This document shows, in pieces, positions 5,408 through 42,729 of a DNA stretch of 64,000 bases. Numbering within the stretch: position 1 is the first letter of the stretch; the number at the start of each line of letters is the position of its first letter. This DNA comes from Alphaproteobacteria bacterium (lineage in GTDB: Bacteria > Pseudomonadota > Alphaproteobacteria > G963923945). The notes below the pieces were generated by a model. The model saw nothing but the letters and a program-made list of their open reading frames with translations. It did no database searches and was not told where the DNA came from. The stretch covers positions 1,643,288 to 1,707,287 of the forward strand of contig OZ240684.1 in the NCBI GenBank assembly GCA_965199175.1, read 5' to 3'. Made by a program: the position numbers and the translations under genes.

Positions 5408-5426
5408 AGCAACAATAATGATTTAA

Positions 5427-6224
5427 TTGTTACTGTCTCGAAGGAACATCTTGATGCCTGTCCATTTTGTCGGGGCCGGACCCGGAGACCCAGATCTTCT
5501 CACCTTACGCGGTCGTGATCTGCTGCGGGCTGCTGATGCTGTTCTGTATGCCGGATCCCTGGTCCCGAAAGCCCTGTTGGCAGAAGCCAAAAAAGCCCGG
5601 GAAATCATCGATACCGCCCCGCTGACCCTCAAAGTCATCATCGACCATATAGACCGTCTGCATCACACAGGATGCCAAATTGTCCGTCTGCATTCCGGCG
5701 ATTTATCTCTTTATAGTGCAGTTGCAGAGCAAATCCGGCATCTCAATCGATTGCAGATTCCCTATGATATGACGCCGGGTGTTCCGGCTTATGCTGCCGC
5801 AGCCTCAGCCCTTGGGCAGGAACTCACCCTGCCGGGGATTACCCAAAGCGTCATCCTGACCCGTACCGCTACCCGTTCCTCAGCCATGCCTCCGGGAGAA
5901 ACCCTGAACGAACTGGCCTCTGGCGGAGCAACCATGGCCATCCATCTCTCAGCAACCAATCTCGCCAGGCTGGTCACCGCATTGATTCCTCATTACGGGG
6001 CTGATTGTCCCGCCGCCGCCTTGTATCGGCTAGGCTGGCCGGATGCCCGGATCATCCGGGCACCACTTGATCAGATACGTGCCAAAGTCAAAGCCGCCAA
6101 AATCACCCGCACTGCTCTCATTCTGGTTGGCCCGGCATTAGCAGCAGATCATTTCAGCGACAGCCGTCTGTATGATGCCGACCATCATCATCTGTTTCGG
6201 GATGCAACAACCAAAGCAGATTAA
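5427..6224 (+). CDS. cbiF: precorrin-4 C11-methyltransferase (CbiF/CobM)
   Basis: 265 aa; VHFVGAGPGDPDLLTLRG tetrapyrrole methylase signature. Confidence 0.85.
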   Translation: MLLSRRNILMPVHFVGAGPGDPDLLTLRGRDLLRAADAVLYAGSLVPKALLAEAKKAREIIDTAPLTLKVIIDHIDRLHHTGCQIVRLHSGDLSLYSAVAEQIRHLNRLQIPYDMTPGVPAYAAAASALGQELTLPGITQSVILTRTATRSSAMPPGETLNELASGGATMAIHLSATNLARLVTALIPHYGADCPAAALYRLGWPDARIIRAPLDQIRAKVKAAKITRTALILVGPALAADHFSDSRLYDADHHHLFRDATTKAD

Positions 6225-6378
6225 CCGGGTCCTGAGAGTGTGACCCCGTTGGTTGGTTGAATCCCAAACCATATCCTCCGCCCCGGCCAGTCTCCAAAAG
6301 CTAATCATATCGTCACTCATCGTCATCATCACGTACAGTCACGTTACAGTCGCGTTACGGCCACTTTAATCACCTCAA

Positions 6379-6984
6379 TCACCGGCTTTTTTGTTCAAAA
6401 ATGCGCCGGATCAAACGGCTGCGGGAATGGCTTGCATAATACTCTGCATCGCGCCCGGTATAATCAGCCAGCCGGGGATCCGCTCCGGCCGCCAGCAAAA
6501 TCCGCACTGATTCGGTCTGATCGCCCTTAACCGCCTGGATCAATGGGGTTGCACCATCCTTGTTCTGGTGGTCAATATCCGCTCCCGCATCAATCAGGCG
6601 TCTGAGAATAGCTCCCTTCCCCAAAGAGGCCGCCCACATCACCACTGTATTCCCGTAAGGATCTTTCTGGCTGATTTTGGCCCCATAATCGAGCAACATA
6701 TCAATCATCTCCATATTGCCCAGCTTCACCCCATACATGAGCGGCGTGTTGCCTTTTGAATCTGGGGTATTGGGAGAAAAATCGGTCTCCAGATGGCGTC
6801 TGATTTTATCAATATCACCACTGCGAACAGCCGTCCAATAAACCAGCTCAGGGAATACATCGCTTTCCACAGCCCGCGCCGGACCAGCCCCCATGACTGA
6901 GACCATCACCACAACCAGAGCCATCCAAAACAACCCGGAGAAGGGATACATTCCGGAAAACCCCAAAAAATCCTTAAAAACCAC
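6379..6984 (-). CDS. ankyrin-repeat protein with an N-terminal hydrophobic segment (signal peptide or membrane anchor)
   Basis: At least 4 ANK-like repeats (GNTPLMYGV..., GNTVVMWAA..., DGATPLIQAV...); the N-terminus has the hydrophobic stretch LFWMALVVVMVSVMGAG. Confidence 0.7.
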   Translation of the reverse strand: MVFKDFLGFSGMYPFSGLFWMALVVVMVSVMGAGPARAVESDVFPELVYWTAVRSGDIDKIRRHLETDFSPNTPDSKGNTPLMYGVKLGNMEMIDMLLDYGAKISQKDPYGNTVVMWAASLGKGAILRRLIDAGADIDHQNKDGATPLIQAVKGDQTESVRILLAAGADPRLADYTGRDAEYYASHSRSRLIRRIFEQKSR

Positions 6985-7117
6985 TTTCTTTTCCTTATTT
7001 TGATTTCTGTTTTGGCACTCTGTTGTCCCGGATCCTGGTCTTCAAAAACCGCTCGTCACCGACTGCCCCTCACCGCACGCCGTACTCTTTGTACCATAGA
7101 TTGATGATGAAAACAGA

Positions 7118-8023
7118 TCACCAGACGGCTTTACACCTGGTCGGGGCGCATCGCTGTGCCAACCAGTCAAGGGCTGTCGAAACACCTGATGCGTGATCGC
7201 CAACCTCAAAGGGTGATGCTTTCACGCCAACCGGACGCTCCAGCAAAAGACACGGTATACCTAAATGATCAGCAGCCGCCAATTTAGCCCGGGTTGCTGC
7301 GCCACCACTCATCTTAGCAATCAGACAATCAATCCCGAATTGACGCAATAATGCGGTTTCCCGGCTGAATGTAAAAGGACCACGCTGCACCCATAAGGCA
7401 AAGCCACCGCGCCGATGGATCAAACGGCCCGATAAACGTAGGGTTACAGAAGAAAGAAGCGGACCAAACGCCGCTTGCCAGTCGGTATAGTCATCCGGCA
7501 AGGCTGCGACCCGGATCAACCAATATCGGCGTGGCAGAAATTTTTGCTCTCGCTGACAGACCGCAGCAAAAGCCGCCGCACCGCCCGCTCCTACTGTCAG
7601 AAAACAACGTTGGGCACCATCAGGCACCGCCGCACAAATTTGCTCAAATCCGGGGAAACTGAGCCATTTCCTCCCGGCCTGCTGCCAGGAGGAACGCTCA
7701 AGGCGCAAATAATCCCGCCCGGTCTGTAAACAAGCCGCACGGGTATTGCCGGAAATGGTGGCCGCAAAAGGATGGCTGGCATCAATCACCCAGTCAATTT
7801 TTTCCTTTTTGAAATACTCCACCAGGCCCGGCACCCCGCCAAAACCGCCCTGGCGCATATCCCCGGCCAGTGGGCCAGCCGGCGGCACCAAACCAAGCCG
7901 GGATGTTACCAATCCTAAGCTTTGGCCATAAATCACCGATACCGCATTGGCCAGATGTCTGGCCTCCCCGGTTCCGCCAATAATCAGAAGCCTCGGTATT
8001 TTTCCCGGTATTTTCCCCGGCAT
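7118..8023 (-). CDS. cbiJ: precorrin-6A / cobalt-precorrin-6A reductase (CobK/CbiJ)
   Basis: 301 aa; N-terminus RLLIIGGTGEARHLA, typical of CobK. Confidence 0.75.
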   Translation of the reverse strand: MPGKIPGKIPRLLIIGGTGEARHLANAVSVIYGQSLGLVTSRLGLVPPAGPLAGDMRQGGFGGVPGLVEYFKKEKIDWVIDASHPFAATISGNTRAACLQTGRDYLRLERSSWQQAGRKWLSFPGFEQICAAVPDGAQRCFLTVGAGGAAAFAAVCQREQKFLPRRYWLIRVAALPDDYTDWQAAFGPLLSSVTLRLSGRLIHRRGGFALWVQRGPFTFSRETALLRQFGIDCLIAKMSGGAATRAKLAAADHLGIPCLLLERPVGVKASPFEVGDHASGVSTALDWLAQRCAPTRCKAVW

Positions 8024-8166
8024 TTTCTATGTTCCCATCCCAACACATAGCAATTCAGAACCCCGGAGATCATGCCCCCAATATTTCTAAATCCCCAACA
8101 CTGCATAAAGCAGAAACAACATAAAGCAGAAACAACCGCATAAAATCACGGGCTCAATCAGCCAGA

Positions 8167-9255
8167 TTACCCCGACTGGCCAATCAGAACCCCATGGCGA
8201 TCAATGACATATACATCAATGGCTGTCCGGCCCGGCAACACCGCCAACGCTGTTGACCGTGCACCGGCCGCGACCTGGTCTGGCAATCTGATTCCTGCAG
8301 CCTGGGCTTGAGTCAACAGCTCCCCGGCTGACTTTACCCCGGCCACAGCCGTAGCCTCGCCACCCAGGGCCGTGAATTGATCAACCAGTCCCCTAAGATC
8401 AACCTGGCTGCGTGATGAATGTAAATCCATTGCCCCGGCTGCTAATTTAGCCAATTTAGCAAATCCTCCGGCCACAGTGAGACGGCCCACCGGGGCCTTA
8501 CGCAAATATTTGAGAAGACCGCCCACAAAATCTCCCATATCAATCGAAGCTTCCTCAGGAAGACCGGTTAACCGGCGGGTAGCCTGTTCAGAAACCTTGC
8601 CGGTTGCAGCAATCAAATGGTCATGCCCTGCAGCCCGCGCCACATCGACTCCCCGATGAATGGCATGAATCCAGGCCGCACAGGAATACGGCACCACCCG
8701 CCCATTACTGCCCAGAACAGAGAGGCCACCGATGATCCCCAGGCGACGATTGAGGGTTTTTTCCGCCAGGTCCTCCCCGTCGGGAATGGAAATAGTGATC
8801 ACCAGGTCTGGCTCTGTGCTCTGTTTTGAACCCTCTTTCTCAGCCAGCACCGCCATCAGAGCTGCCCGAATCATGGCTCGTGGTCCGGCATTGATCGCCG
8901 GTTCACCAACCGCCAGCGGCAATCCGGGCCGGGTTACCCGCCCAACCCCAATGCCGCCGCAAAACTGGATTCCGCCACCCGCCGGGCCGGGCCGGACCGT
9001 GGTAATCACTTCAACCCCATGGGTCACATCCGGATCATCTCCTGCATCTTTGGTGATCCCGGCCAGGGCTTCCTGATCGCTGCACTGCCATCGGGTCAAA
9101 GGAAAGGCATGGGTCTTTCCGTCAGGAAAGCGCATCAGGACCGGATCAGGGATGGTTCCGCCAATCAACCCGGTATAGGCCGCCGCTGCTGCTGCTGCCG
9201 AGCAGGCACCGGTCGTGAAGCCGGACCTCAAATCTCCGCCATATTTCTGTTTCAC
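8167..9255 (-). CDS. cbiD: cobalt-precorrin-5B C1-methyltransferase (CbiD)
   Basis: 362 aa; N-terminus LRSGFTTGACSAAAAAAA, characteristic of CbiD. Confidence 0.85.
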   Translation of the reverse strand: MKQKYGGDLRSGFTTGACSAAAAAAAYTGLIGGTIPDPVLMRFPDGKTHAFPLTRWQCSDQEALAGITKDAGDDPDVTHGVEVITTVRPGPAGGGIQFCGGIGVGRVTRPGLPLAVGEPAINAGPRAMIRAALMAVLAEKEGSKQSTEPDLVITISIPDGEDLAEKTLNRRLGIIGGLSVLGSNGRVVPYSCAAWIHAIHRGVDVARAAGHDHLIAATGKVSEQATRRLTGLPEEASIDMGDFVGGLLKYLRKAPVGRLTVAGGFAKLAKLAAGAMDLHSSRSQVDLRGLVDQFTALGGEATAVAGVKSAGELLTQAQAAGIRLPDQVAAGARSTALAVLPGRTAIDVYVIDRHGVLIGQSG

Positions 9256-9260
9256 TCTGT

Positions 9261-9366
9261 ATGTTCCTGTCTGATACGATGTTCCTGTCTGATACGGACT
9301 GTCTGATACGGACTGTCTGATACGGACTGTCTGATATGGACTGTCTGATACGGACTGTCTTTACGG
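9261..9366. repeat. Tandem repeat array: 2 x 18 bp (atgttcctgtctgatacg) followed by about 5 x 14 bp (gactgtctgatacg), immediately upstream of the cbiD start
   Basis: Read directly from the sequence. Confidence 0.9.
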
Positions 9367-9422
9367 AGCAGTAAGCGGTTTTTGTCTCAAAAGACTCCTG
9401 TTTCAAGCTGTTTTACCGATGA

Positions 9423-9567
9423 TTTCCTGTGTTCTCCACATTTAGGATAATTTTCTGTGTTCTTCACATTTAGGATGATTTTCTGTGTTCTCCACATTTA
9501 GTTTCTATGCCTTTCACATTTAGTTTCTATGCCTTTCACATTTGGTTTCTATGCCTTTCACATTTGG
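9423..9567. repeat. Two adjacent tandem arrays: 3 x about 28 bp (ttttctgtgttctccacatttaggatga) then 3 x 22 bp (tttctatgcctttcacatttgg)
   Basis: Read directly; the units share a CACATTT(A/G)G core. Confidence 0.9.
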
Positions 9568-9599
9568 TCCGGGTGATCGACACATCAACAGGCAATTTT

Positions 9600-9730
9600 C
9601 TATATTCAAAAAAACCTTTTATACTTAAAAACATATGCTCAAAAACGATATATACTCAAAAACAATGTCTTTTTTGTAACAGCACTTTTTTGTAACAACG
9701 CTTTTTTTATAACAATGTCTTTTTTACCCA
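9600..9730. repeat. AT-rich leader of cobA with 4 x about 17 bp repeats (ctttttt(g/a)taacaa). These include a duplicated copy of the cobA start region (aatgtctttttt) that forms a decoy ATG-TCT-TTT-TTG-TAA mini-ORF
   Basis: Read directly from the sequence. Confidence 0.85.
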
Positions 9731-10572
9731 AAAATATTACCACATTGCCGGATTTTGAACCCGGATGGGTCTGGCTGGTCGGGGCCGGACCAGGAGACCC
9801 TGGTTTACTGACCCTGGCGGCTCTGCATGCCTTGGAAAACTGTGATATTATCGTCTATGATGCCTTGGTTGATCCCCGGATTCTGCGGCTGGCAAGAACA
9901 GGAGTACGCCTGGAATATGCCGGTAAGCGCGGCGGAAAACCATCACCGGTTCAGCCAGATATCTCAAATATCCTGGTCCGCCGTGCCCGGTCCGGAAGAC
10001 GGGTTTTACGCCTCAAAGGAGGGGATCCCTTCACCTTTGGACGCGGCGGTGAAGAGGGGTTGGCTTTGGTGCGGGCACGGGTACCGTTCCGGGTTATTCC
10101 CGGCATTACCGCCGGTATCGGGGGTCTCGCTTATGCCGGAATCCCGGTCACCCATCGCGAAACCAACTCCGTGGTCACTTTCGTCACCGGAAACAGCAGT
10201 GGCGGCGGGTTGCCAACCGATATTGACTGGCCATCCCTGGCACAGGGGTCACCGATGCTGGTCTTCTACATGGCCCTCAATCATCTGGATCAAATCGCTG
10301 ATCGTCTGATACATCACGGGCGACCCAAACAAGAAGCGGTTGCCATTGTCTCCAGAGCCACCCGGCAAGACCAACAAATTCTCGAAACAACCCTCAGCGA
10401 TTGTGCCCAGGACGCCCGGGCCACCGGCATCAAAGCCCCAGCAATCATCGCGATTGGCCAATCGGTACGTTTGCGCGCTGGTCTGGATTGGTTGTCAGCC
10501 AGCCACGGAGCCATCCTTGATCCCGACCCGATGGGTTTAGGAAACCAATGGACAACCGAACAAGCAAGCTAA
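9715..10572 (+). CDS. cobA: uroporphyrinogen-III C-methyltransferase (CobA/CysG-A type)
   Basis: 285 aa; VWLVGAGPGDPGLLTLAA methylase signature. Confidence 0.85.
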   Translation: MSFLPKNITTLPDFEPGWVWLVGAGPGDPGLLTLAALHALENCDIIVYDALVDPRILRLARTGVRLEYAGKRGGKPSPVQPDISNILVRRARSGRRVLRLKGGDPFTFGRGGEEGLALVRARVPFRVIPGITAGIGGLAYAGIPVTHRETNSVVTFVTGNSSGGGLPTDIDWPSLAQGSPMLVFYMALNHLDQIADRLIHHGRPKQEAVAIVSRATRQDQQILETTLSDCAQDARATGIKAPAIIAIGQSVRLRAGLDWLSASHGAILDPDPMGLGNQWTTEQAS

Positions 10573-11225
10573 TGATCAGTCATTCATCGGCAAAAACCCG
10601 GATCCGGCATGTGTTGCTCATCGCAACTCTGGCTGCCGCCATCGGTATCGCTTATCTGAACTATAGGGTCACCACCCAACCAGTTGATGATCCTCAATCC
10701 GCCAGTCAATCAGACCCCCCGGTCACCATTGGTGGCCCGTTTACCCTCATCGACCATAACGGCCAGATCCGCCATGATGCGGATTTTCGTGGTCATTATA
10801 TGGTGATCTATTTTGGCTACACGTACTGCCCGGATATCTGCCCCTTTGATTTACGCAAAATGACCAAAGCTCTTGATCAGCTCAACACCAAAGGGGAAGA
10901 GATTATACCTATCTTCATCAGCATTGATCCTGAACGCGACACCCAGGAACGTCTGGCCGACTATGTCGATGCCCTGCATCCACGCCTGATTGCCCTGACC
11001 GGCTCCCCCCAACAAATTGCCCAGGCAGCCAGTCAGTATCGGGTTTATTACGCCCGGTCAGACGAATCAGCCCCATCGGGTGATGGGTATCTGATCAATC
11101 ACAGTGCCCTCTTTTATCTCATGGGTCCCGATGGCCGCTATATCACCCATATCCCCAGCGGGGCCAATGAAGAGCAAATGATCACAACCCTTAAGAGCGT
11201 TATTGATTCCCAGCCTTCTTCTTAA
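10548..11225 (+). CDS. SCO1/SenC-family copper chaperone (thioredoxin-like, CxxxC)
   Basis: N-terminal TM helix; FGYTYCPDICP motif; embedded in the cbi cluster. Confidence 0.8.
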   Translation: MDNRTSKLMISHSSAKTRIRHVLLIATLAAAIGIAYLNYRVTTQPVDDPQSASQSDPPVTIGGPFTLIDHNGQIRHDADFRGHYMVIYFGYTYCPDICPFDLRKMTKALDQLNTKGEEIIPIFISIDPERDTQERLADYVDALHPRLIALTGSPQQIAQAASQYRVYYARSDESAPSGDGYLINHSALFYLMGPDGRYITHIPSGANEEQMITTLKSVIDSQPSS

Positions 11226-11273
11226 TTTTGGTGTTTTTGGTTCGATGTTGCCGCTCCGTCAAACCGTATTTTT

Positions 11274-12713
11274 ATGTCTTATGGCCTGATTATTGCCGCC
11301 CCGACATCCGGAAGCGGCAAAACAGTCTTTACCCTTGGCCTGATCCGGGCATGGAAACGCCAGGGTCGCCAGAGTGCTGCCGCAAAAATCGGGCCGGACT
11401 ATATTGATCCTGGCTTCCATCGCGCTGCCGGTGCCGGTGCCCTGCGTAATCTGGATCACTGGGCCATGCGCACAGCAACCATTGCCTCAGCCATACGTGA
11501 TCTTGCCGATGCCGGCGATTATATCCTCTGCGAAGGGGTTATGGGGCTGTTTGATGGTGCTCAGACGACCCGGATTCCAAACACCGGAAATGCAGAGATC
11601 AACCGCGCTGCATCTCTTGGACAGTGTTGCGACAATGCACCCACCCCTGCAAAAACAGTGATCCCCGGCTCAACGGCTGATTGTGCTGTTGCAACCGGCT
11701 GGCCAGTCTTGCTGATCATTGATGCAGCACATCAGGCCGCCAGTGTTGGGGCGGTCATTCATGGCTGTGCCACCGCCTGTGAGAGGGTGACCATCTCCGG
11801 GGTTGTGTTCAACCGGGTCGGGAGTCCGGGCCATCGGGAGGCTTTGGAAACCGGTCTCCGGCTTTATGCTCCCGGTATTCCCCTTTTGGGTTTTCTGCCC
11901 CGTCACCCATCTGTGGACCTTCCCGGCCGCTATCTCGGTCTGGTCCAGGCCGGAGAATTGACGGCGATTGAGGAGCAAATTGAGAATATCGCCGATTGGG
12001 TCAGTGATCACTGTGATCTGGCAGCGCTGGACCAGATCATCAGATCAAACCAGGGCCCAACTGTCGCGCCACCGAGCCGGTCGGTCAAGCCACCCATTCC
12101 CCCGCTCGGCCAGCGTATGGCGATTGCCCGGGATAGAGCTTTTTCGTTTCTCTATGATGGAATTGTCGAAGGATGGCGGAAAGAGGGTGCTGAAATCTGC
12201 TTTTTTTCTCCTTTAGATAACACCCCGCCAGCAAATGATGCAGATGCCGTAATCTTACCGGGCGGGTACCCGGAACTCTATGCCGGAACACTGGCATCCA
12301 ACCAGATTTTTCTCAGCGGATTGCATCAGGCTGCTGATCGTGGAGCAACCCTCTATGGAGAATGCGGCGGCTTCATGACCCTGGGAAAGAGCATCACTGA
12401 CCGCGATGGCCATCGCCATATAATGGCTGGCTTGCTGCCTCTGGAAAGTGATCTGCATAAACCCACACGGGTGCTTGGGTACCGTCACCTGACCCTGGCC
12501 GCCACCACAGCCTTAGGAAAGAAAGGAGAGCAATTTCGTGGCCATGAATTCCGCTATAGCCGAATCACCACCCAGGGAAAAAGGGATGGTGCTTTATTCA
12601 TGGCCAGTGATGCTGCCGGACGGCCCTTACCACCGATGGGACTGCGACACCGGAGAGTACTTGGCTCCTTTGCTCATATCATTGACCGGCATGAAACAGA
12701 CCCAACGTACTGA
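11274..12713 (+). CDS. cbiA: cobyrinate a,c-diamide synthase (CbiA/CobB)
   Basis: 479 aa; N-terminal ATP-binding APTSGSGKT and a C-terminal glutamine amidotransferase domain (GECGGFM). Confidence 0.85.
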   Translation: MSYGLIIAAPTSGSGKTVFTLGLIRAWKRQGRQSAAAKIGPDYIDPGFHRAAGAGALRNLDHWAMRTATIASAIRDLADAGDYILCEGVMGLFDGAQTTRIPNTGNAEINRAASLGQCCDNAPTPAKTVIPGSTADCAVATGWPVLLIIDAAHQAASVGAVIHGCATACERVTISGVVFNRVGSPGHREALETGLRLYAPGIPLLGFLPRHPSVDLPGRYLGLVQAGELTAIEEQIENIADWVSDHCDLAALDQIIRSNQGPTVAPPSRSVKPPIPPLGQRMAIARDRAFSFLYDGIVEGWRKEGAEICFFSPLDNTPPANDADAVILPGGYPELYAGTLASNQIFLSGLHQAADRGATLYGECGGFMTLGKSITDRDGHRHIMAGLLPLESDLHKPTRVLGYRHLTLAATTALGKKGEQFRGHEFRYSRITTQGKRDGALFMASDAAGRPLPPMGLRHRRVLGSFAHIIDRHETDPTY

Positions 12714-12786
12714 GAACATTCTTTGGGCATAACTATATCGGCTGGTATGAATATATCAGCAAGCTGACCAGCCACTCCACACGCAA

Positions 12787-14706
12787 TCAGTTGAATGATT
12801 GCCCAACAACCATGAAATCCCGCCACAGGCGGGCCGGTAATCCGCCACCAGTCACCTTGTCCATGGGGCGGGCATCATCATTGCCTAACCAGACCCCGGT
12901 GACCCGTTCCTCATCAAAACCAATAAACCAGGCATCACGAAAATTCTGGCTGGTTCCGGTCTTACCGGCCACCGGCCGCTCCAACAAAGCCGCCCGACCG
13001 GTTCCGGTCTTCACGACCTGCCCAAGCATCATACGAAGCCGGGCCACCTGATCGCCGGCAACCGCTCGTCCGGGACCCGATCCTCGACGTTGATACAAAA
13101 TACCGCCCTCGCGGGTGCGAATATCCTCAATCCCGTAAGGCCACACCCCATAACCATCATTATTGAAAACAGCATACGCCGCACACAGATCAAGGAGATT
13201 GACTTCGCCGACCCCCAAAGCTAAAGCCGGGCCACCTGGTAACGGGCCGGTAATCCCCAACCGCCGGGCAACCGCAATCACCTCATCACGGCCAACCGCC
13301 TCGGTCAGCTTGACAGCAATGCTGTTGACCGACTGAGAAAGAGCCTCAGACACCGTCATCGCCCCGGTATAGGTGCCGCTGTAATTGGAAGGCGACCAGC
13401 CATCAACCGCCACCGGTTCATCAATCACCGTTTCTTCGGGCGTAAAGCCAGCCTCCAAAGCCGCCAGATACACAAAGAGCTTAAAAGCCGACCCGGGCTG
13501 ACGATAGGCTTGCGTGACCCGGTTATATTGACTGTCGCCATAATCCCGGCCCCCAATCATCGCCCGGATAGCCCCGTCAGAAGTCATGGATACCAAAGCG
13601 GCCTGATCGACCTGGCGGGATTTTCCGGTTGTCTGCAAACCCGCAACCAACACCCCCTCGCCATGGGTTTGTAAACCCAGATCCAACGTTGTCCGCACGA
13701 TGATATCCTGCCCGCGATTGCCGACAATCGCCCGTGCCCGGGGTAAAATCCAATCAGTGAAATAACGCGCCGAACGCGGTGGACCAGAGCGCACCAGGCC
13801 TTGGGGAACCTCACGCTCATGGGCATTTTTCCATTGACCTTCACTCAGGAACCCCACCACCCGCATAGCCCTCAGAACCACCTGAGTCCGGCGATGGGCT
13901 AAATCCGGATTACGGCTTGGTGCATAACGTGACGGTGCCTTGGGTAAACCAGCCAATAAAGCAGCTTCATAGAGAGTCACATCACGGGCTGATTTACCAA
14001 AATAGGCCCGGGCTGCCGCCTCAATACCATAAGCCCCAGCCCCGAAATAAATCCGGTTGAGATAAATGCTCAGGATTTGATCTTTGGTGTATTTGCTCTC
14101 CAGCCACAGGCTTAAAGCAGCCTCCTGGATTTTTCGCTTCAGGCTGCGTTCGGGGCTCAAAAACAATGTCTTAGCCAGCTGTTGGGTAATCGTACTCCCA
14201 CCCTGGACCACCCGGCCAGCCTTGAGATTGACCCAGGCAGCCCGCACCAAACCCACCGGATCAAGGCCAAAATGGCTCCGGAAACGACGGTCCTCAACCG
14301 CCAGAAACGCCGCAATCAAATGGGGAGGCAGTTCAGAAACCCGGGCAACCCGCCCATGACGTCCACCAACAACAGCAATTTCAGCCCCATGACGATCCAG
14401 AACAACAATACTCGGTTGGCGGGTCGCCGAAAATACAGGATCAATCGGGGGTAAATCGAACAAAAACCATGCAACCACACACCCCATCACCACCATCACC
14501 CAAACAGCGGTGACGACCCCCCATTTCACCAGAAACATACAAAGCCGAAAGCCAGAAAAACCACGCGCAGAGGAAGCAGAACCCCTCTTAGAAGATGAAC
14601 GCCCCTGAGAAGATGAGTGCAACGTCTTCTTTTGCACCATCTTCTTTTGCGCCGTCTTCCCGGATCGTCGCGGTTTCTGCCCGCGTCTGCTCTTCATCAT
14701 ACCCAT
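12787..14706 (-). CDS. bifunctional class A penicillin-binding protein (transglycosylase plus transpeptidase) with a long basic N-terminal tail
   Basis: GT51 motifs EDRRF and QGGSTITQQLAK; transpeptidase motifs GSAFK and KTGT; an N-terminal K/R-rich tail followed by a TM helix. Confidence 0.8.
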   Translation of the reverse strand: MGMMKSRRGQKPRRSGKTAQKKMVQKKTLHSSSQGRSSSKRGSASSARGFSGFRLCMFLVKWGVVTAVWVMVVMGCVVAWFLFDLPPIDPVFSATRQPSIVVLDRHGAEIAVVGGRHGRVARVSELPPHLIAAFLAVEDRRFRSHFGLDPVGLVRAAWVNLKAGRVVQGGSTITQQLAKTLFLSPERSLKRKIQEAALSLWLESKYTKDQILSIYLNRIYFGAGAYGIEAAARAYFGKSARDVTLYEAALLAGLPKAPSRYAPSRNPDLAHRRTQVVLRAMRVVGFLSEGQWKNAHEREVPQGLVRSGPPRSARYFTDWILPRARAIVGNRGQDIIVRTTLDLGLQTHGEGVLVAGLQTTGKSRQVDQAALVSMTSDGAIRAMIGGRDYGDSQYNRVTQAYRQPGSAFKLFVYLAALEAGFTPEETVIDEPVAVDGWSPSNYSGTYTGAMTVSEALSQSVNSIAVKLTEAVGRDEVIAVARRLGITGPLPGGPALALGVGEVNLLDLCAAYAVFNNDGYGVWPYGIEDIRTREGGILYQRRGSGPGRAVAGDQVARLRMMLGQVVKTGTGRAALLERPVAGKTGTSQNFRDAWFIGFDEERVTGVWLGNDDARPMDKVTGGGLPARLWRDFMVVGQSFN

Positions 14707-14893
14707 CCAGCCACAAGGACCATCATCGCCTGCCTGCCCCCACAGCCTTTACCCGACCAGCCGCATCACAATCAACCAACACATCCCCGCAATGAACGTG
14801 ATCCAGACGTTATGATTCAATTCAGAATTCTGGTTAAAAATTCTGATCGATCAGAGCACTCTGTCAAAGGTCATGGTGACACGGAAATAAAGA

Positions 14894-18651
<3,758 letters not shown>

Positions 18652-33002: not shown

Positions 33003-33773
33003 ATGGCTGGAGACCATGAAACGTCTTCATATATTTTCCATATATTTTCCGATGAGGCCGGGTGTTTCGGCTTTCATAAAAAAGGGAATGCCAGCCGATA
33101 TTTTATCATCTGCAGCGTCATGATGGAAAATTGCGCCATCAGTCAGGCTTTGGAAGATTTAAGACGTAAGATAGTCTGGGAAAGATCCCTTATTGGGGAC
33201 AGCTTCCATGCCTGTCATGACAGGCAAAAAATCCGCAATAAGGTTTTTAGCATCATGAAAAACCATGAATTTGACGTCCACGCAACGATTATGGAAAAAC
33301 CAAAAGCGCGTTCACATGTCCGGAAATCAAACCATATTTTTTACAAATATGGCTGGTATTACCAGCTAAAAAACGCCATATCGGCAGAGAAAAAAAGAAC
33401 CCGCGCATTTCTGTTTACAACGGCCAGTATTGGAAAGAAAAAACATCAGGCTCAGTTTACCCATGCAATCAATCATGCAGTCAATGAAGTGGCGCAGCAA
33501 ACCATCCCGGACGGCAGATGGAAGACGTCCCCTTCATCGTCCGATCCTTGCTTACAGATTGCAGAGTATTGCAGCTGGGCTCGCTCTTCGAAGAAAATGG
33601 GAACGCAACGACCCACGGTCTTACAATCTGATCAAAGACCACATCAAATAGGGATCAGATACGAATATGACCTTTGGCAATATGGGAAAACCCACTCTTA
33701 CTTAAGAGTATCAAAAGCCATAACCGAAGGGAAAAGCAGCCCGCCCCGCAATCTCAACTATCGGCTTGAATGA
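33003..33773 (+). CDS. DUF3800-family protein, in a low-GC stretch
   Basis: 256 aa; the N-terminal IFSDEAGCF (DE[S/A]G) motif is characteristic of DUF3800, a putative RNase H-like fold; the exact start is uncertain. Confidence 0.5.
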   Translation: MAGDHETSSYIFHIFSDEAGCFGFHKKGNASRYFIICSVMMENCAISQALEDLRRKIVWERSLIGDSFHACHDRQKIRNKVFSIMKNHEFDVHATIMEKPKARSHVRKSNHIFYKYGWYYQLKNAISAEKKRTRAFLFTTASIGKKKHQAQFTHAINHAVNEVAQQTIPDGRWKTSPSSSDPCLQIAEYCSWARSSKKMGTQRPTVLQSDQRPHQIGIRYEYDLWQYGKTHSYLRVSKAITEGKSSPPRNLNYRLE

Positions 33774-35685: not shown

Positions 35686-36648
35686 TCAGGTCAGATGTTC
35701 TGGTCTTTTGGATTGCGACCCGGACACAAGCCGCCGGGGGGATTGCGGTCGCCGGCCAGTCACAGGGGGCGTATTCTGCATCAAATCGACCAGCAACAAC
35801 GCCAGGGCAGCGGTTGCGATAACCGGTGCGATCAGATTAACCACCGGCAGGCTGAATAAAAAAGCCACCACCATCCCATGCCGCCATATCCGGCCAGCTG
35901 CCCGGCGACGCCAGAAGGCTATTTGATCCGGGCACAGGCGACGTAAGGCCACCAGGTCAAAATATTCACGCCCCAGCAGATAGCCGTTGGCCCCATAATA
36001 CAGCAGGGGATAAAGCGGCCCCAGCAGCAATGCCGGTAACAGAAGAATATTCACCACCACAATCAGCCCGGCATATCGAAGGGTCAGCATCACCGCCCGC
36101 CCCGGCGACAAAGAGCGTGGCGGCGGCAATCCGTCTGTGTAATGAGCCTCAGCAGAAGCAGCCACCACATCCAGAAACAAGCTCACAGCAACCCCGGTTA
36201 AGGCCGGAAACAGTGCCAAAGCCAGAACAAAGATCACCAGCATCCCCAATGATGCAAGCAGCCCATCCAACCAATACCAACCGGTTGAAGGGAGCAGAAA
36301 CAAACCCCCGCTCAATACTGCGGCCAGAAGAACCAGCACCACAAAAGCCCCGATCACAGACAACAGCAAAACCCGGCGGATTCGCCGGTCTGATAACAAG
36401 CCAAAGGCAGCAGCAAAACGAGTCAACATGGCCCCATCATCAATCAGCAAACAACCAATCACAAGCAGGATCACACCCCGGCAAACAGCCCAATGATAAA
36501 GACCGGTACTGATAAGGACGGAAAGGACTGCTTGATGGATATCCGAAAGACTACGTGTCAGAAAGAAAAGATACGGGTCGGGAAAATTACGTGTCAGCAT
36601 CAATAACGCCGGAGACGAAACAACGGACCCGATAGCCATATTGAGCAT
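35686..36648 (-). CDS. polytopic inner-membrane protein of the EI24 / CysZ-like family
   Basis: 320 aa with about 6 predicted TM helices; family assignment by resemblance only. Confidence 0.5.
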   Translation of the reverse strand: MLNMAIGSVVSSPALLMLTRNFPDPYLFFLTRSLSDIHQAVLSVLISTGLYHWAVCRGVILLVIGCLLIDDGAMLTRFAAAFGLLSDRRIRRVLLLSVIGAFVVLVLLAAVLSGGLFLLPSTGWYWLDGLLASLGMLVIFVLALALFPALTGVAVSLFLDVVAASAEAHYTDGLPPPRSLSPGRAVMLTLRYAGLIVVVNILLLPALLLGPLYPLLYYGANGYLLGREYFDLVALRRLCPDQIAFWRRRAAGRIWRHGMVVAFLFSLPVVNLIAPVIATAALALLLVDLMQNTPPVTGRRPQSPRRLVSGSQSKRPEHLT

Positions 36649-36762
36649 ATTTCTCTCTGGTTTACGCCGATTTTTTTGGGATCATCGACGTTTCCGATTC
36701 TGCGATGCCATTGGTATCCGATGATATGATATGGTTTGCCTGTCATTACTCAGGCTGTATTA

Positions 36763-36846
36763 CGTCTATCTGCGCACTTTGTTTGAGCTGAATAAACGCT
36801 ATGGGTTTCGCAAATTCATCATTGTAGTGCCCAGCGTTGCGGCTTG
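36763..36846 (+). other. An 84-bp copy of an internal segment of the downstream res gene (matches 39435-39518 with 3-4 mismatches), same orientation, lying in the intergenic region upstream of mod
   Basis: Direct sequence comparison: tacgtctatctgcgcac(t/g)(t/g)tgtttgagctgaataaacgctatgggtttcgcaaattcatcattgtagtgcccagcgt. Confidence 0.9.
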
Positions 36847-36955
36847 ACTGTTTGAACCAGCTGGGGTCTGAACGTCCGGAGGAATACCATCCCACGTATA
36901 ACATCACGCAACACCAAAACAGCCTGATGCGTAAAGATGGAAAGAGAGTCAATCA

Positions 36956-38989
36956 ATGCATGAAACCAGAAAAAGCATCATCAAGACTGCCGCAGATGAA
37001 TCAAACAAGCCGGAAATAAATAAACCGGAGACTGATACAACGGCACCCAACAGACCAGAGACCCATGAGCCAGAGACCCATAGGCCGGAGACTCATAGGC
37101 CAGAGACCTTCGATCTCACCTCAATGGATGTGGGGGCGGAAAAACGCGCGGCTTTACGTGGCCTGTTCCCGGAAGTTTTTGCAGAAGACCGGATTGATTT
37201 TGATCAGCTCAAACGTGTTCTGGGTACATGGGTGGAGCCGGGGAAAGAACGCTTTGGCCTCACCTGGCCCGGCAAGGCTGATTGTATGCGCGTCATCCAG
37301 CAACCCAGCATTGCCACCCTGAAGCCAGCACGGGATCAATCGGTTGATTTTGATACGACCGGTCATCTGTTCATTGAAGGGGATAATCTGGAGGTCCTCA
37401 AGCTGTTGCAAAAAGCCTATTTCGGTAAGGTCAAGATGATCTATATCGACCCGCCCTATAACACCGGCAAGGAGTTTATCTATCCCGATAAGCATGCGGA
37501 AAATCTCAGGACCTATCTGGAATATACCGGCCAGCTGGATGGGCAGGGCCGCAAATTTTCCACCAATACCGAACAAACCGGGCGGTATCATTCCAACTGG
37601 CTGAGTATGATGTATCCGCGCCTCTATCTGGCCAGGAATTTACTCCGCGAGGATGGGGTGATTTTTATCAGCATCGATGACAACGAACAGGCGCATTTAA
37701 AAGCCCTGTGTGATCAAATTTTCGGAGAGGAGAATTTTGTTGGTATAATAATTTGGAAAAAGAAAACAAACGGAAATAATATGGGGGAGATTCCCTCTGT
37801 TCATGACTATTTCATATGTTATGCAAAAAATTTATTGGTCACAAATTTAATAGGTTTTCCGATATCTGAAGAATATATCAGAAAAAATTATTCTAATACT
37901 GATAATGACCCGAGAGGACCTTGGACGACTACTGATTTATCGGCAAATCATAAAGGACCTTATTTTGAAATCATAAATCCAAATACCAATGATTGTTTTC
38001 TTCCTCCTAAAGGTAGGTATTGGGTTTTTGGAAAAGAGGAAGTTAAAAAGAGAATCAAAGATGGAAGAATAATTTTTGGAAAATCCAATACGGGAAGACC
38101 TGTTCAGAAAAAATATTTGTCTGAAAAAATCTCAATGAGGGTCAAGCCTGAATCGTGGTGGGATAATCATGGGATGAATGAAGATGGAACAACTGAGATC
38201 TCTGAATTATTTGAGCCGAAATTTTTTGACCACCCTAAACCTACAATAACTTTAAAGCACCTTTGCAATATCACAACTCAAAATACAGATTTAATATTGG
38301 ACTTTTTCTCTGGCTCATCCTCAACCGCTCATGCGGTGATGCAGTTGAATGCTGAGGATGGGGGCCAGCGCAAATATATCTGTGTCCAGTTGCCCGAACC
38401 CTGTGACGAAAAATCCGAAGCCTGTAAAGCCGGGTATGACACCATTGCCGATATTGGTCGCGAACGCATCCGCCGGGCTGCCCAAAAAATCGCCGACCAA
38501 ACAATCAGCTCTGAACAGACCGGTAAACTCGACCTTGATACCGGCGAAAAGCCGGATCTGGGCTTCCGGGCCTTTCGGCTGGATCGCTCCAATTTTAAGG
38601 TCTGGGATCAGAAAGCCGACGATGCCGAAACCATCGCCCAACGCCTGGAAGATCATATTGATCATCTGGATGCCACCAGCACGCCCGAAGATATTCTCTA
38701 TGAATTATTGCTCAAAGCCGGCTTTGAACTGACAACCCCGGTGACTCAGCGCACCCTGGCCGGAAAACCCGTATTTTCCATTGAAGGGGAAACCGGCCCC
38801 CTGCTGATTTGCCTGGAAAAAACCATCACGACCGAATTGATTGACGCCTTAGCCGCCGCCAACCCGGCCCAGGTGATCTGCCTGGATGCCGGCTTCCGGG
38901 GCAATGATCAACTCAAAGCCAATGCCGTGCAAAGTTTCAAAACCCAGGCCCGGATCACCAGCCAGGATATTATCTTCCAGACAGTCTAG
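36956..38989 (+). CDS. mod: Type III restriction-modification system methyltransferase (Mod), an N6-adenine MTase
   Basis: 677 aa; IDPPYNTG catalytic motif, FxGxG SAM motif near the C-terminus (FFSGSSSTAHA); the central roughly 600 bp is AT-rich (a target-recognition domain of foreign composition); in-frame 15-bp repeats in the N-terminus. Confidence 0.9.
   Translation: MHETRKSIIKTAADESNKPEINKPETDTTAPNRPETHEPETHRPETHRPETFDLTSMDVGAEKRAALRGLFPEVFAEDRIDFDQLKRVLGTWVEPGKERFGLTWPGKADCMRVIQQPSIATLKPARDQSVDFDTTGHLFIEGDNLEVLKLLQKAYFGKVKMIYIDPPYNTGKEFIYPDKHAENLRTYLEYTGQLDGQGRKFSTNTEQTGRYHSNWLSMMYPRLYLARNLLREDGVIFISIDDNEQAHLKALCDQIFGEENFVGIIIWKKKTNGNNMGEIPSVHDYFICYAKNLLVTNLIGFPISEEYIRKNYSNTDNDPRGPWTTTDLSANHKGPYFEIINPNTNDCFLPPKGRYWVFGKEEVKKRIKDGRIIFGKSNTGRPVQKKYLSEKISMRVKPESWWDNHGMNEDGTTEISELFEPKFFDHPKPTITLKHLCNITTQNTDLILDFFSGSSSTAHAVMQLNAEDGGQRKYICVQLPEPCDEKSEACKAGYDTIADIGRERIRRAAQKIADQTISSEQTGKLDLDTGEKPDLGFRAFRLDRSNFKVWDQKADDAETIAQRLEDHIDHLDATSTPEDILYELLLKAGFELTTPVTQRTLAGKPVFSIEGETGPLLICLEKTITTELIDALAAANPAQVICLDAGFRGNDQLKANAVQSFKTQARITSQDIIFQTV
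37054..37107 (+). repeat. About 3.6 x 15 bp in-frame tandem repeats (ccagagacccatgag) encoding PETHE/PETHR repeats in the Mod N-terminus
   Basis: Read directly from the sequence. Confidence 0.9.
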
Positions 38990-39120: not shown

Positions 39121-42111
39121 GTGAGAAAATCGCAAGTGAAACTTAAATTTGATCCCTCACTGGACTATCAACAAGACGCCATCAATGCAGTGGTTGATGT
39201 CTTTGCCGGTCAGGCCAGCCCGCAAAACAGTGCGGCGGCTTTTCAATCCTTGCAAATCGGCGGAATGTTTGAACAAGAACTCGGGGTCGGGAATCTTTTG
39301 ACTCTGCCCGATGATGTGCTGCTGGCCAATGTCCATACAATACAGGAAGCCAACGCCATCGAAAAAGTGCCTGCGCTTCAGGGGCGGCATTTCTCGATTG
39401 AGATGGAAACCGGAACCGGCAAAACATACGTCTATCTGCGCACGGTGTTTGAGCTGAATAAACGCTATGGGTTTCGCAAATTCATCATTGTAGTGCCCAG
39501 CGTCGCAGTCCGTGAAGGAGTGCTCAAAAGCATCACCATCATGAAGGACCATTTCCGGACCCTCTATGACATGGTGCCGTTTGATTATTTTGTCTATGAT
39601 TCCAAAAAACTGGCAGCCGTGCGGGAATTTTGCGGCGGCAACCATATCAAGATCATGGTGATCAATATCCAGGCATTCGTGAAAGACTTCCCCGACCAGC
39701 CACAATCAGAAACAATCACCGATACAACCAAACAACCAGACCAAAAGCGTGCTGATCAAAAACGTAACGTCATCAACCGGGAAAATGACCGGATGTCGGG
39801 AAGAAAACCCATTGAGTTTATTCAGGCAACCCGTCCTCTGGTGATTATTGATGAACCACAAAGTGTCGATAATACCCAAAAAGCACAAGATGCCATCAAA
39901 CGCCTCAATCCATCAGCAACTTTGCGCTACAGTGCCACCCATCGCAATCCGTATAATCTGCTTTATAAACTGGACCCCATCAAAGCCTATGATCTGCGGC
40001 TGGTGAAACGGATTGAGGTGGCCTCAGTCCGGACCGAAGATCACTTCAATGATGCGTTTGTAAGGCTTCTGCAAACTGATAATACAAACGGCATCCGGGC
40101 CCGGGTTGAAATCCATAAGGAAGGAGCAAAAGGGCCAAAACCGGTCCGGGTATGGGTCCGGCAAGGCGATGATCTGTTCGTAAAATCCGGCCAGCGGGCC
40201 GCGTATGAAAATGGCTATATCATTCAGAATATTGATTGCACACCCGGAGCCGCAGGGGTGGAACTCACCTCCGGGCATTGGCTGGCTCTGGGCCACGAAA
40301 TCGGTGGTTTGAATGATGATATTATGAAACGCCAGGTTTTTGAAACCGTCGAACAGCATCTGAAAAAAGAGCGGGCCTTTCAAAACAAAGGCATCAAGCC
40401 ACTCTCCCTGTTCTTTATCGACACAGTCGCCAATTATCGCATCTATCATGATGATGGCTCAACCGGGCTGGGAAAAATCGGTCGATGGTTCGAGGATGCT
40501 TTTTGCGAACTCATACAAAAACCAGCCTATAAGGGCCTCATCCCCCATGCGGTTACCAATATCCATAATGGGTATTTCAGCCGGGATAAAAAGGGGCGAG
40601 TCCGGGATACCAGAGGCAACACCAGAGATGATGAAGAAACCTATCATCTGATTATGCGGGATAAGGAAAAGCTGTTGGATCAGGCCGAACCTCTGCGCTT
40701 TATTTTTTCCCATTCCGCCTTGCGGGAAGGGTGGGACAACCCCAACGTGTTCCAGATCTGCACCCTGAATGAAACCCGGTCCCCGGACAAAAAACGCCAG
40801 GAAATTGGTCGCGGCTTGCGTCTGGCGGTCAATCAGGAAGGACACCGCATTCACGATGAAAACATCAACCGCCTCACAGTTATCGCCAATCAATCCTACG
40901 AAGAATTCGCCCGCACTCTGCAATCCGAATTTGAAGAGGAATACGGAATCCGTTTCGGGCGGGTCGAAAAAATTGCCTTTTCTAAACTTGTCTCCCCAAA
41001 TTCTCAAGGGGTGGAAACAGAAATCGGACAAGCAACCTCAACCACCATCTGGCAGGAACTGGTGGATCATGGGTACCTGAATGAGGATGGAGAAATCCTT
41101 GATTCATTCGACCCCAAAAACCCCGATTTTAAATTGAAAATCTCCGCGGAATTTGTCTCTCTGGAACCGGAAATCACTGATATCATCAATCAAAAGCTGT
41201 TCAAAAACCGCATCCCTGATGCCCGGGAAAAACGACTGCTCACCTTTCATAAACAAGTGTATCTGGATCCCGAATTTGAAAAACTATGGCAACGAATCAG
41301 CCAACGCACCCGTTACCGGGTGCGGTTTAATACCGATGCACTGATCGAAAAAGCCGCCAGGCGCATTAAAAACATTGACCCCATCAAGCCAGTCCGCATC
41401 ACCACAACCCGTGCTGGTCTCGATATCACCGAGGCCGGAGTTGATTCCCAAACCGTCTTAGAACAAAAATCCTTTGAGACTCAATCTGTGGCATTTTTGC
41501 CCGATATTCTGGCTTTCTTACAAAAGGAAACCGAACTCACCCGCCATACATTGGTTCAGATTTTACAACAATCCGGTCGGCTGGCCGAATTCCAGATCAA
41601 TCCGCAATCCTTCATGGAGGCAGTCACCCGGGAAATCTCCCGGGCCCTTCGGGATCTGATGCTGGATGGAATCCAATACGAAAAAATCACCGACCAAAGA
41701 TGGGATATGGCCCGGATTGAGAAAGATGCCGCAGAAGAAATTCAACGCTATTTAGACCGACTCTATACAGTGAAGAACACCGAAAAAACCCTGTTTAATG
41801 CCATTGAATGTGATTCTGAAGTTGAGCGGCGATACGCCAGGGAACTGGATAATGACGAAAATGTACGGTTGTTCGTAAAACTCCCCGGCTGGTTCGTCAT
41901 TGATACGCCCATTGGCCCCTATAACCCCGATTGGGCTTTTGTCGCCGAACGCGATGAAAGCCTCTATTTTGTTCGCGAGACCAAGTCATCCACGGACCGC
42001 CAGCATCTCCGGACCAGGGAAGATCAGAAAATTGCCTATGGTCAAAAACATTTCAAAACCATTGGGGTTGATTATGCGCTCAGAACTTCTCTGCGGGAGG
42101 AAAGATGGTGA
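39121..42111 (+). CDS. res: Type III restriction enzyme Res (SF2 helicase plus a C-terminal PD-(D/E)xK nuclease); GTG start
   Basis: 996 aa; helicase motifs METGTGKT and LVIIDEPQS, C-terminal nuclease region; it lies immediately downstream of mod. Confidence 0.9.
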   Translation: MRKSQVKLKFDPSLDYQQDAINAVVDVFAGQASPQNSAAAFQSLQIGGMFEQELGVGNLLTLPDDVLLANVHTIQEANAIEKVPALQGRHFSIEMETGTGKTYVYLRTVFELNKRYGFRKFIIVVPSVAVREGVLKSITIMKDHFRTLYDMVPFDYFVYDSKKLAAVREFCGGNHIKIMVINIQAFVKDFPDQPQSETITDTTKQPDQKRADQKRNVINRENDRMSGRKPIEFIQATRPLVIIDEPQSVDNTQKAQDAIKRLNPSATLRYSATHRNPYNLLYKLDPIKAYDLRLVKRIEVASVRTEDHFNDAFVRLLQTDNTNGIRARVEIHKEGAKGPKPVRVWVRQGDDLFVKSGQRAAYENGYIIQNIDCTPGAAGVELTSGHWLALGHEIGGLNDDIMKRQVFETVEQHLKKERAFQNKGIKPLSLFFIDTVANYRIYHDDGSTGLGKIGRWFEDAFCELIQKPAYKGLIPHAVTNIHNGYFSRDKKGRVRDTRGNTRDDEETYHLIMRDKEKLLDQAEPLRFIFSHSALREGWDNPNVFQICTLNETRSPDKKRQEIGRGLRLAVNQEGHRIHDENINRLTVIANQSYEEFARTLQSEFEEEYGIRFGRVEKIAFSKLVSPNSQGVETEIGQATSTTIWQELVDHGYLNEDGEILDSFDPKNPDFKLKISAEFVSLEPEITDIINQKLFKNRIPDAREKRLLTFHKQVYLDPEFEKLWQRISQRTRYRVRFNTDALIEKAARRIKNIDPIKPVRITTTRAGLDITEAGVDSQTVLEQKSFETQSVAFLPDILAFLQKETELTRHTLVQILQQSGRLAEFQINPQSFMEAVTREISRALRDLMLDGIQYEKITDQRWDMARIEKDAAEEIQRYLDRLYTVKNTEKTLFNAIECDSEVERRYARELDNDENVRLFVKLPGWFVIDTPIGPYNPDWAFVAERDESLYFVRETKSSTDRQHLRTREDQKIAYGQKHFKTIGVDYALRTSLREERW

Positions 42112-42258: not shown

Positions 42259-42729
42259 ATGCCGCCCCCGCATCACTATATGGATCAAGCCCTCCGGCAG
42301 GCTGAACAAGCCTTTGAACGAGGGGAAATCCCCGTCGGGGCAGTCTTGACGGTCAATGATGTTATCCTGGCTGAGGCCGGCAACCGGGTCGAGGAATTAA
42401 AAGACGTAACCGCGCATGCCGAAATCCTCTGCCTGAGAGAAGCTGCCCAAAAATGCCGGACCAAAACCCTCCACAACGCCACCCTCTATGTCACTCTGGA
42501 ACCCTGCGCCATGTGTGCCGGGGCGATTGCTGCAGCTCGCATTCAATCCCTGTATTACGGGGCCTTTGACCCCAAATCCGGCGGGGTCGAACATGGGGCA
42601 AAATTGTTCTCCCAGCCCACTTGTCATCATCGTCCTGAAATTTATGGCGGCTTCCTCGAAAGCCAGTGCGGGGAACTGCTCTCGCGTTTCTTTGCAGCCC
42701 GGCGGGGTGATCCTTCCTCAGACTCCTGA
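42259..42729 (+). CDS. tadA: tRNA-specific adenosine deaminase
   Basis: HAEILCLREA and PCAMCAGAI zinc-binding motifs. Confidence 0.9.
   Translation: MPPPHHYMDQALRQAEQAFERGEIPVGAVLTVNDVILAEAGNRVEELKDVTAHAEILCLREAAQKCRTKTLHNATLYVTLEPCAMCAGAIAAARIQSLYYGAFDPKSGGVEHGAKLFSQPTCHHRPEIYGGFLESQCGELLSRFFAARRGDPSSDS

Follow-up and report, generated by a model that had tools for sequence, protein, structure and literature searches.

A short res-derived repeat upstream of a Type III mod-res operon in an alphaproteobacterium, read as a probable scar of templated illegitimate recombination

The 64,000-nt stretch of alphaproteobacterial DNA analysed here (the window) carries a short internal segment of a Type III restriction gene, res, a second time in the intergenic DNA upstream of the partner methyltransferase gene, mod. 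The repeat is real, yet it is best read as the one-off scar of an illegitimate recombination event and not as a regulatory device or the relic of a cassette. In the reading that we consider probable, the copy is a single recent templated patch that was laid down by microhomology-mediated illegitimate recombination, in the manner of the events described as SPDIR, and that has no evident function.

The two genes lie adjacent on the same strand and together form a complete Type III restriction-modification operon. The methyltransferase gene mod (36956..38989, plus strand) encodes a protein of 677 aa with a Pfam N6_N4_Mtase domain and a PADLOC MTase_III match of 712 bits. The restriction endonuclease/helicase gene res (39121..42111, plus strand) encodes a protein with Pfam ResIII, DEAD and RE_endonuc domains and a PADLOC REase_III match of 948 bits; its reading frame opens with a GTG at 39121 in the 996-aa reading used here and at 39136 in the public call P0001 (991 aa). 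In Type III enzymes Res acts only together with Mod. The operon occupies a variable gap whose right border is a tadA-like deaminase gene (42259..42729, plus strand), followed by purD and xseA, with M23 peptidase and lpxK genes also among the neighbours. The left border is an EI24/CysZ-like membrane protein gene (35686..36429, minus strand), beyond which lie nth, a DUF2244 gene, a DUF3800 gene, dapB, dnaJ and dnaK. The longest EI24 reading frame (35686-36648, 320 aa, public call P0131) is probably over-extended by 73 codons; EI24 homologues are 227-261 aa long, nucleotide conservation with relatives begins at about 36429-36447, and the probable true start is 36429, so that the intergenic region ahead of mod comprises 36430-36955.

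Within this region, window positions 36761-36840/41 match res 39427-39506/07 in direct orientation, with 77 of 80 bases identical (96%) and an E value of 7e-34 in a local blastn alignment, at a start-to-start spacing of 2,666 bp. When the whole 64-kb window is compared with itself this pair is the sole match with E < 1e-4, and it is therefore not a product of chance. A sequence-only reading of the window had already pointed to this direct repeat, and it placed the upstream copy correctly to within 2-5 nt. The length and the position in res require correction: the match covers 80-81 nt and not 84 bp, since 36842-36846 have no counterpart, and the res arm lies at 39427-39507, about 8 nt below the previously assigned 39435-39518. 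The copy differs from res by GG>TT at 36778-79 and C>T at 36838, and an extended match adds A>G at 36841; past the 80 nt, GCGG stands opposite GCAG and similarity then disappears. In the pairwise alignment both ends of the copy are sharp, with identity breaking off abruptly on either side. We distinguish an unambiguous donor-derived core (about 36771-36833, plus strand), in which GG>TT, a Val to Leu change in the res frame, is the sole difference, from possible junction or microhomology zones at the two edges (36761-36770 and 36834-36841). The longest perfectly identical block, of 58 nt, spans 36780..36837 and is shared with res 39446-39503.

The donor segment (39427..39507, plus strand) begins at the codon directly after the Walker A motif (GTGKT) and encodes Res residues 103-129, the most conserved part of Res among homologues. 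A tblastn search with Res returns a single 27-residue match at the upstream copy (36761..36841, plus strand), with 96% identity and aligned to ...RTVFEL.... The earlier description of the copy as a non-coding, same-orientation duplicate of res sequence from just behind Walker A is supported. The copy does lie upstream of mod as described, at a measured 114 nt from its end to the ATG at 36956 where 110 bp had been given, and the repeats do enclose mod and the 5' end of res, although the enclosed part of res amounts to 102 codons in the 996-codon reading, or 97 with the start at 39136, where about 105 had been estimated.

The identity of the donor follows from a comparison over the same 84 nt. 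Here 78 further res genes agree with the resident res at 69% of positions on average and at 77% in the best case, and the upstream copy agrees with it at 96%, which indicates that the donor was the resident res or a near-identical allele and that the event is recent. The same comparison leads us to reject a relic of a different, earlier cassette, as the divergence of the copy is not that of another allele or species; of the sequence-only reading's suggestion of a scar left by an earlier res copy or cassette exchange, the general category of a recombination scar survives and the earlier cassette does not. A longer degraded res or mod pseudogene, the possibility that translated alignment was to address, is likewise rejected: tblastn of 36300-37000 and of the whole window finds no Res or Mod homology at this site beyond the 27 codons, and blastn with a word size of 7 finds no further res or mod match in the sequence adjoining the copy. 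The differences at 36838 and 36841 may stem from the recipient, given that L081 (one of the related genomes introduced below) has GCGTTACCGC where the window has GCGTTGCGGC and res has GCGTCGCAGT. We also considered whether the location of three of the four differences at third codon positions marks the copy as a once-functional, diverged allele, and set this argument aside: the two differences furthest to the right are probably part of the recipient junction, and the number of differences is too small.

Three related genomes (L081, L082 and L083), reached through the neighbouring EI24 gene and about 67-84% identical to the window at the nucleotide level in the aligned flanking regions, place the operon in its wider context. 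All three share the order xseA-purD-tadA-gap-EI24-nth-DUF2244-dapB-dnaJ-dnaK, and the content of the gap differs in each. The gap of L083 is almost empty (340 bp), and a 60-75 nt island of the res C-terminal region (L083 3035-3109; Res 912-936; 83% nucleotide identity, tblastn E 2e-7) sits 36 nt from tadA. The gap of L082 contains three small unknown ORFs, and that of L081 contains a GmrSD/HEC-05 gene followed directly by a remnant of the res N-terminal region (Res 6-33; L081 3420-3503). At 5236-15079, L081 additionally has two tandem pairs of orphan Type III mod genes, four genes in all, in inverted arrangement around the EI24 gene. Taken together, these gap contents indicate a defence hotspot in which a Type III system has long been present and is being eroded and rearranged.

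The 80-nt copy is absent from the orthologous position in L081, L082 and L083, and it shows no significant similarity to the intergenic DNA of these genomes. The comparison of locus architecture in relatives that had been proposed along with the sequence-only reading thus yields three related genomes without the copy at this position. An ancient, decayed orthologous copy in L081, hinted at by a MAFFT alignment, was rejected when local and global alignment gave no signal against shuffles. Among 80 other Type III loci from bacteria and archaea, searched by peptide tblastn and self-blastn, none has a second copy of the segment, and the literature we searched on res fragments upstream of mod contained nothing relevant. 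The protein itself stands apart in the collections: in about 5.8 billion clustered proteins Res has no close relative except its own entry (one member, from one 2.07-Mb contig), and the next best match, from Sneathiella, is 71% identical. Exact look-ups of Res, Mod, tadA and P0001 gave no match, metagenome and viral collections scanned for exact 44-mers and 36-mers contained 0 matches, and the sequence has no match in E. coli.

Several further features of the neighbourhood were observed alongside the repeat. An in-frame 15-bp tandem repeat at 37055-37108 (3.6 copies, consensus CCAGAGACCCATAGG) encodes PETHR pentapeptides in an N-terminal extension of Mod; it gives a weak Pfam GETHR match, is missing from the Mod N-termini of L081, and could change in copy number without a frameshift. 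The centre of mod (37500-38250), where the GC content falls to 0.33-0.39 from about 0.50 in the surrounding sequence, is probably a horizontally swapped target-recognition domain. In L081, the mod array includes a 2.8-kb inverted repeat that is 97.8% identical, its mod genes have conserved ends and central regions of three different kinds, the two genes of a pair are separated by HEPN/MNT-like remnants, and no intact res is found in the array; from this arrangement, it could be a locus for recombination-driven shuffling of mod specificity. The DUF3800 gene (33003-33773), which has a weak PADLOC DUF3800_VII match and occupies a lower-GC stretch between a hypothetical gene and the DUF2244 gene, is missing from that position in L081 and L082 and may represent a further small insertion related to defence. 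Two copies of a motif of about 20 nt ending in ACGTGTCAG (36542-36561 and 36578-36597) lie 36 nt apart upstream of the probable EI24 start and overlap the only predicted minus-strand promoter-like site (36597..36568), to the left of the res copy and nearer EI24; this motif pair may be a putative regulator binding site.

Comparison with the relatives also reveals the nature of the DNA on either side of the copy. Abutting its right end is a 16-mer, CGGCTTGACTGTTTGA (36840..36855, plus strand), that is found exactly at the orthologous position of L082 (8342..8327); it has a single occurrence in 83 loci, and 0 of 300 shuffles attain its score. A -35-like TTGACT lies within this 16-mer, and farther to the right L081 and L082 also share GAACGTCCGGAG and the purine-rich ribosome-binding region ahead of the ATG. 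The left flank (36430..36760), which is EI24-proximal intergenic DNA, has a weak but collinear similarity to L082 (10/300 shuffles) and L083 (2/300 shuffles). When the interior of the copy is aligned to the corresponding segments of the relatives, the score is attained by 1951 of 2000 shuffles for L082 and by 432 of 2000 for L081, and the L081 and L082 segments at this place resemble each other (32/2000 shuffles). Native flanks around an interior that is unlike the L081 and L082 segments mark the copy as foreign to an otherwise native intergenic region.

The junctions offer a suggestion of how the foreign segment was joined. At the place orthologous to the left junction, L082 has ATACGTC and L081 has CGTCTATC, both of which match the donor ATACGTCTATC, and the distance from this motif to the 16-mer is 77 nt in L082 and 79 nt in the window. 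Donor and recipient have only GCGT..GC in common at the right junction, the recipient being deduced from diverged relatives. An alternative alignment through TTGCCTGT, which is common to the window and L082, would make the event an insertion of the copy together with 17 nt of other origin; the 17-20 nt just left of the copy have no other copy in the window. The evidence from the junctions is only suggestive, because matches of 7-8 nt are about as frequent genome-wide as chance predicts, the relatives are diverged and this alternative alignment exists.

In the mechanism that we favour, the resident res, or an allele nearly identical to it, would have been the template for about 77-81 nt that came to lie in the native DNA between EI24 and mod, about 115 nt ahead of mod, with the patch annealing at two microhomologies and replacing a similar length of resident DNA. 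The type of event is inferred; the patch may have replaced about 70 nt of older sequence or may have been a pure insertion, and the copy appears neutral, judging from the absence of signals in one genome. The closest known counterpart is SPDIR, which is described as comprising microindels of 3 to about 100 bp formed when intra- or extragenomic single strands anneal at (extended) microhomologies (bioRxiv 10.1101/2023.11.22.568220). The res copy resembles such events in being a short ectopic patch within this size range with an identifiable intragenomic donor 2,666 bp away; it also has sharp junctions with candidate microhomologies, and under one alignment it would replace resident sequence in a roughly length-neutral manner. 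It departs from them in lying at the upper end of the reported size range and in having a recipient reconstructed from diverged relatives. A single-stranded DNA intermediate integrated at a replication fork would have to be presumed, and the event may instead have been a pure insertion.

The origin of the copy can be explained in other ways that make different demands on the same evidence. A scar of several steps, in which mod-res was first duplicated in tandem, or a circular mod-res' intermediate integrated in Campbell fashion, and a later deletion spared only res codons 103-129 of the first copy, is conceivable but unlikely. The near-identity of the copy to the resident res would suit a recent duplicate, and the relatives show large duplications and decay in the gap, namely the mod pairs and res remnant of L081 and the res island of L083, but at least two illegitimate events would be needed, and their end points would have to bring the spacing back almost to its original value (79 nt, with 77 nt in L082). 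In addition, native DNA starts again precisely at the right edge of the copy, and no other trace of a second cassette is seen. The copy does share the tadA-EI24 gap in which relatives hold res remnants, orphan mod genes and other defence genes; unlike the decaying Type III remnants there, however, it was not left in place, as its position upstream of mod and its age (96% identity) are both wrong for such a remnant and it has no flanking decayed homology. That a chimeric or mis-joined read placed res sequence upstream of mod is extremely improbable. The contig is apparently a metagenome-assembled chromosome of 2.07 Mb, which leaves some room for such an error, yet 3-4 positions distinguish the copy from res, both of its junctions are clean and lie within otherwise native, collinear intergenic DNA, and 80 nt is far too short to mislead a long-read assembler. 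The collapsed repeat that the sequence-only reading had named as a possible artefact does not bear on the matter, as collapse removes repeats and creates none. A diversity-generating retroelement, whose template and variable repeats would likewise be two direct copies of about 80-100 nt with one in coding sequence, was rejected: no reverse transcriptase occurs within about 10 kb to the left or right, the mismatches show no adenine specificity, and the copy inside coding sequence belongs to the best-conserved helicase motif region and not to a variable ligand-binding tip.

A second group of alternatives assigns the copy a function. Recombination between the repeats, either RecA-dependent or by replication slippage, would delete mod, the res start and Walker A, would silence the system irreversibly, and would fuse a 38-codon ORF running through the copy in frame to a Res 103-996 that lacks Walker A. 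The 58-nt perfect block makes it plausible that such an inactivating deletion could be supported, and because Res needs Mod to act, the joint loss of mod and Walker A should be safe. The geometry of direct repeats 2,666 bp apart would also fit a selected switch, in which the pair is maintained so that a subpopulation sheds mod and the 5' end of res and turns restriction off. The minimal processing segment is quoted as 23-27 bp and the range for RecA pathways as 44-90 bp (PMC12074656), values that 58 nt respectively exceeds and falls within. There is, moreover, a precedent in the wzy locus of Salmonella Typhimurium, where spontaneous excision between perfect 113-bp repeats that are conserved in 134 of 134 representative S. 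Typhimurium genomes checked has been observed to produce a 2,558-bp deletion (PMC12074656). Both are loci of phage interaction in which a deletion of about 2.6 kb is framed by direct repeats about 100 bp long, and the identical length of the res repeat should suffice for RecA-dependent or RecA-independent deletion. Unlike the wzy repeats, however, the res repeat is 80 nt long with 3 mismatches, occurs in one genome only and has one arm in coding sequence, and the deletion at mod-res would be irreversible and has been observed in no variant. The absence of the repeat from three relatives and 80 other Type III loci gives no sign of conservation, the copy already differs from res by the core GG>TT, and the collections searched hold no deletion variant or second strain. 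A selected switch of this kind thus appears very unlikely to us, and the irreversibility of the deletion, the lack of conservation of the repeat and the lack of a second strain in the collections make deletion a possible consequence of the repeat and not its purpose. Similarly improbable is the broader proposition that the pair is a selected self-destruct of the Type III system or, alternatively, that the copy modulates mod-res expression near the -35-like element; if the self-destruct were real, excision in a fraction of cells would produce restriction-free cells able to take up foreign DNA. Highly improbable, too, is a regulatory element that tunes Res expression through an antisense or decoy RNA, through competition for 39805-39825 or through a 38-residue peptide. 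The copy does lie directly upstream of the -35-like hexamer of the mod region, and the 38-codon ORF (36731..36847, plus strand, res frame) is open throughout it, as is expected of a stop-free coding fragment; this ORF has no evident Shine-Dalgarno sequence ahead of it, though, and is probably not expressed. Neither a sigma-70-like promoter from which a discrete RNA might arise nor an intrinsic terminator is predicted in or beside the copy on either strand, no Rfam families or tRNAs are found in the window, and the RNA folds of the copy region are ordinary on both strands (z-scores 0.05 and -1.0). The remaining argument for such an element is a 21-nt inverted match in which 39454-39474, and equally 36788-36808 of the copy, is complementary to res 39805-39825 at 19 of 21 positions, more than in 200 codon shuffles. 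The same positions in homologues show a complementarity of 3-15/21, and the peptide motifs LNKRYGF and KPIEFIQ allow high complementarity with A/T-ending codons. As the match is unconserved and largely permitted by these two motifs, functional intramolecular pairing was rejected and we regard the match as an unexplained coincidence, and the absence of the copy from relatives likewise speaks against a regulatory role.

In summary, the templated patch is most likely a harmless scar that might, at the very most, serve as a substrate for loss of the system by deletion. Events of this kind are already known, and the res copy adds one more natural instance: a fairly clean natural patch, about 80 nt long, whose donor is identified 2.7 kb away in the same genome, which is of modest interest for the study of microindel and SPDIR-type mutation. 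If the 2,666-bp deletion does occur, the locus would provide a simple natural model for the repeat-mediated loss of a restriction system. More broadly, the tadA-EI24 gap of this small-genome alphaproteobacterial clade emerges as a hotspot in which Type III systems are gained, multiplied and eroded.
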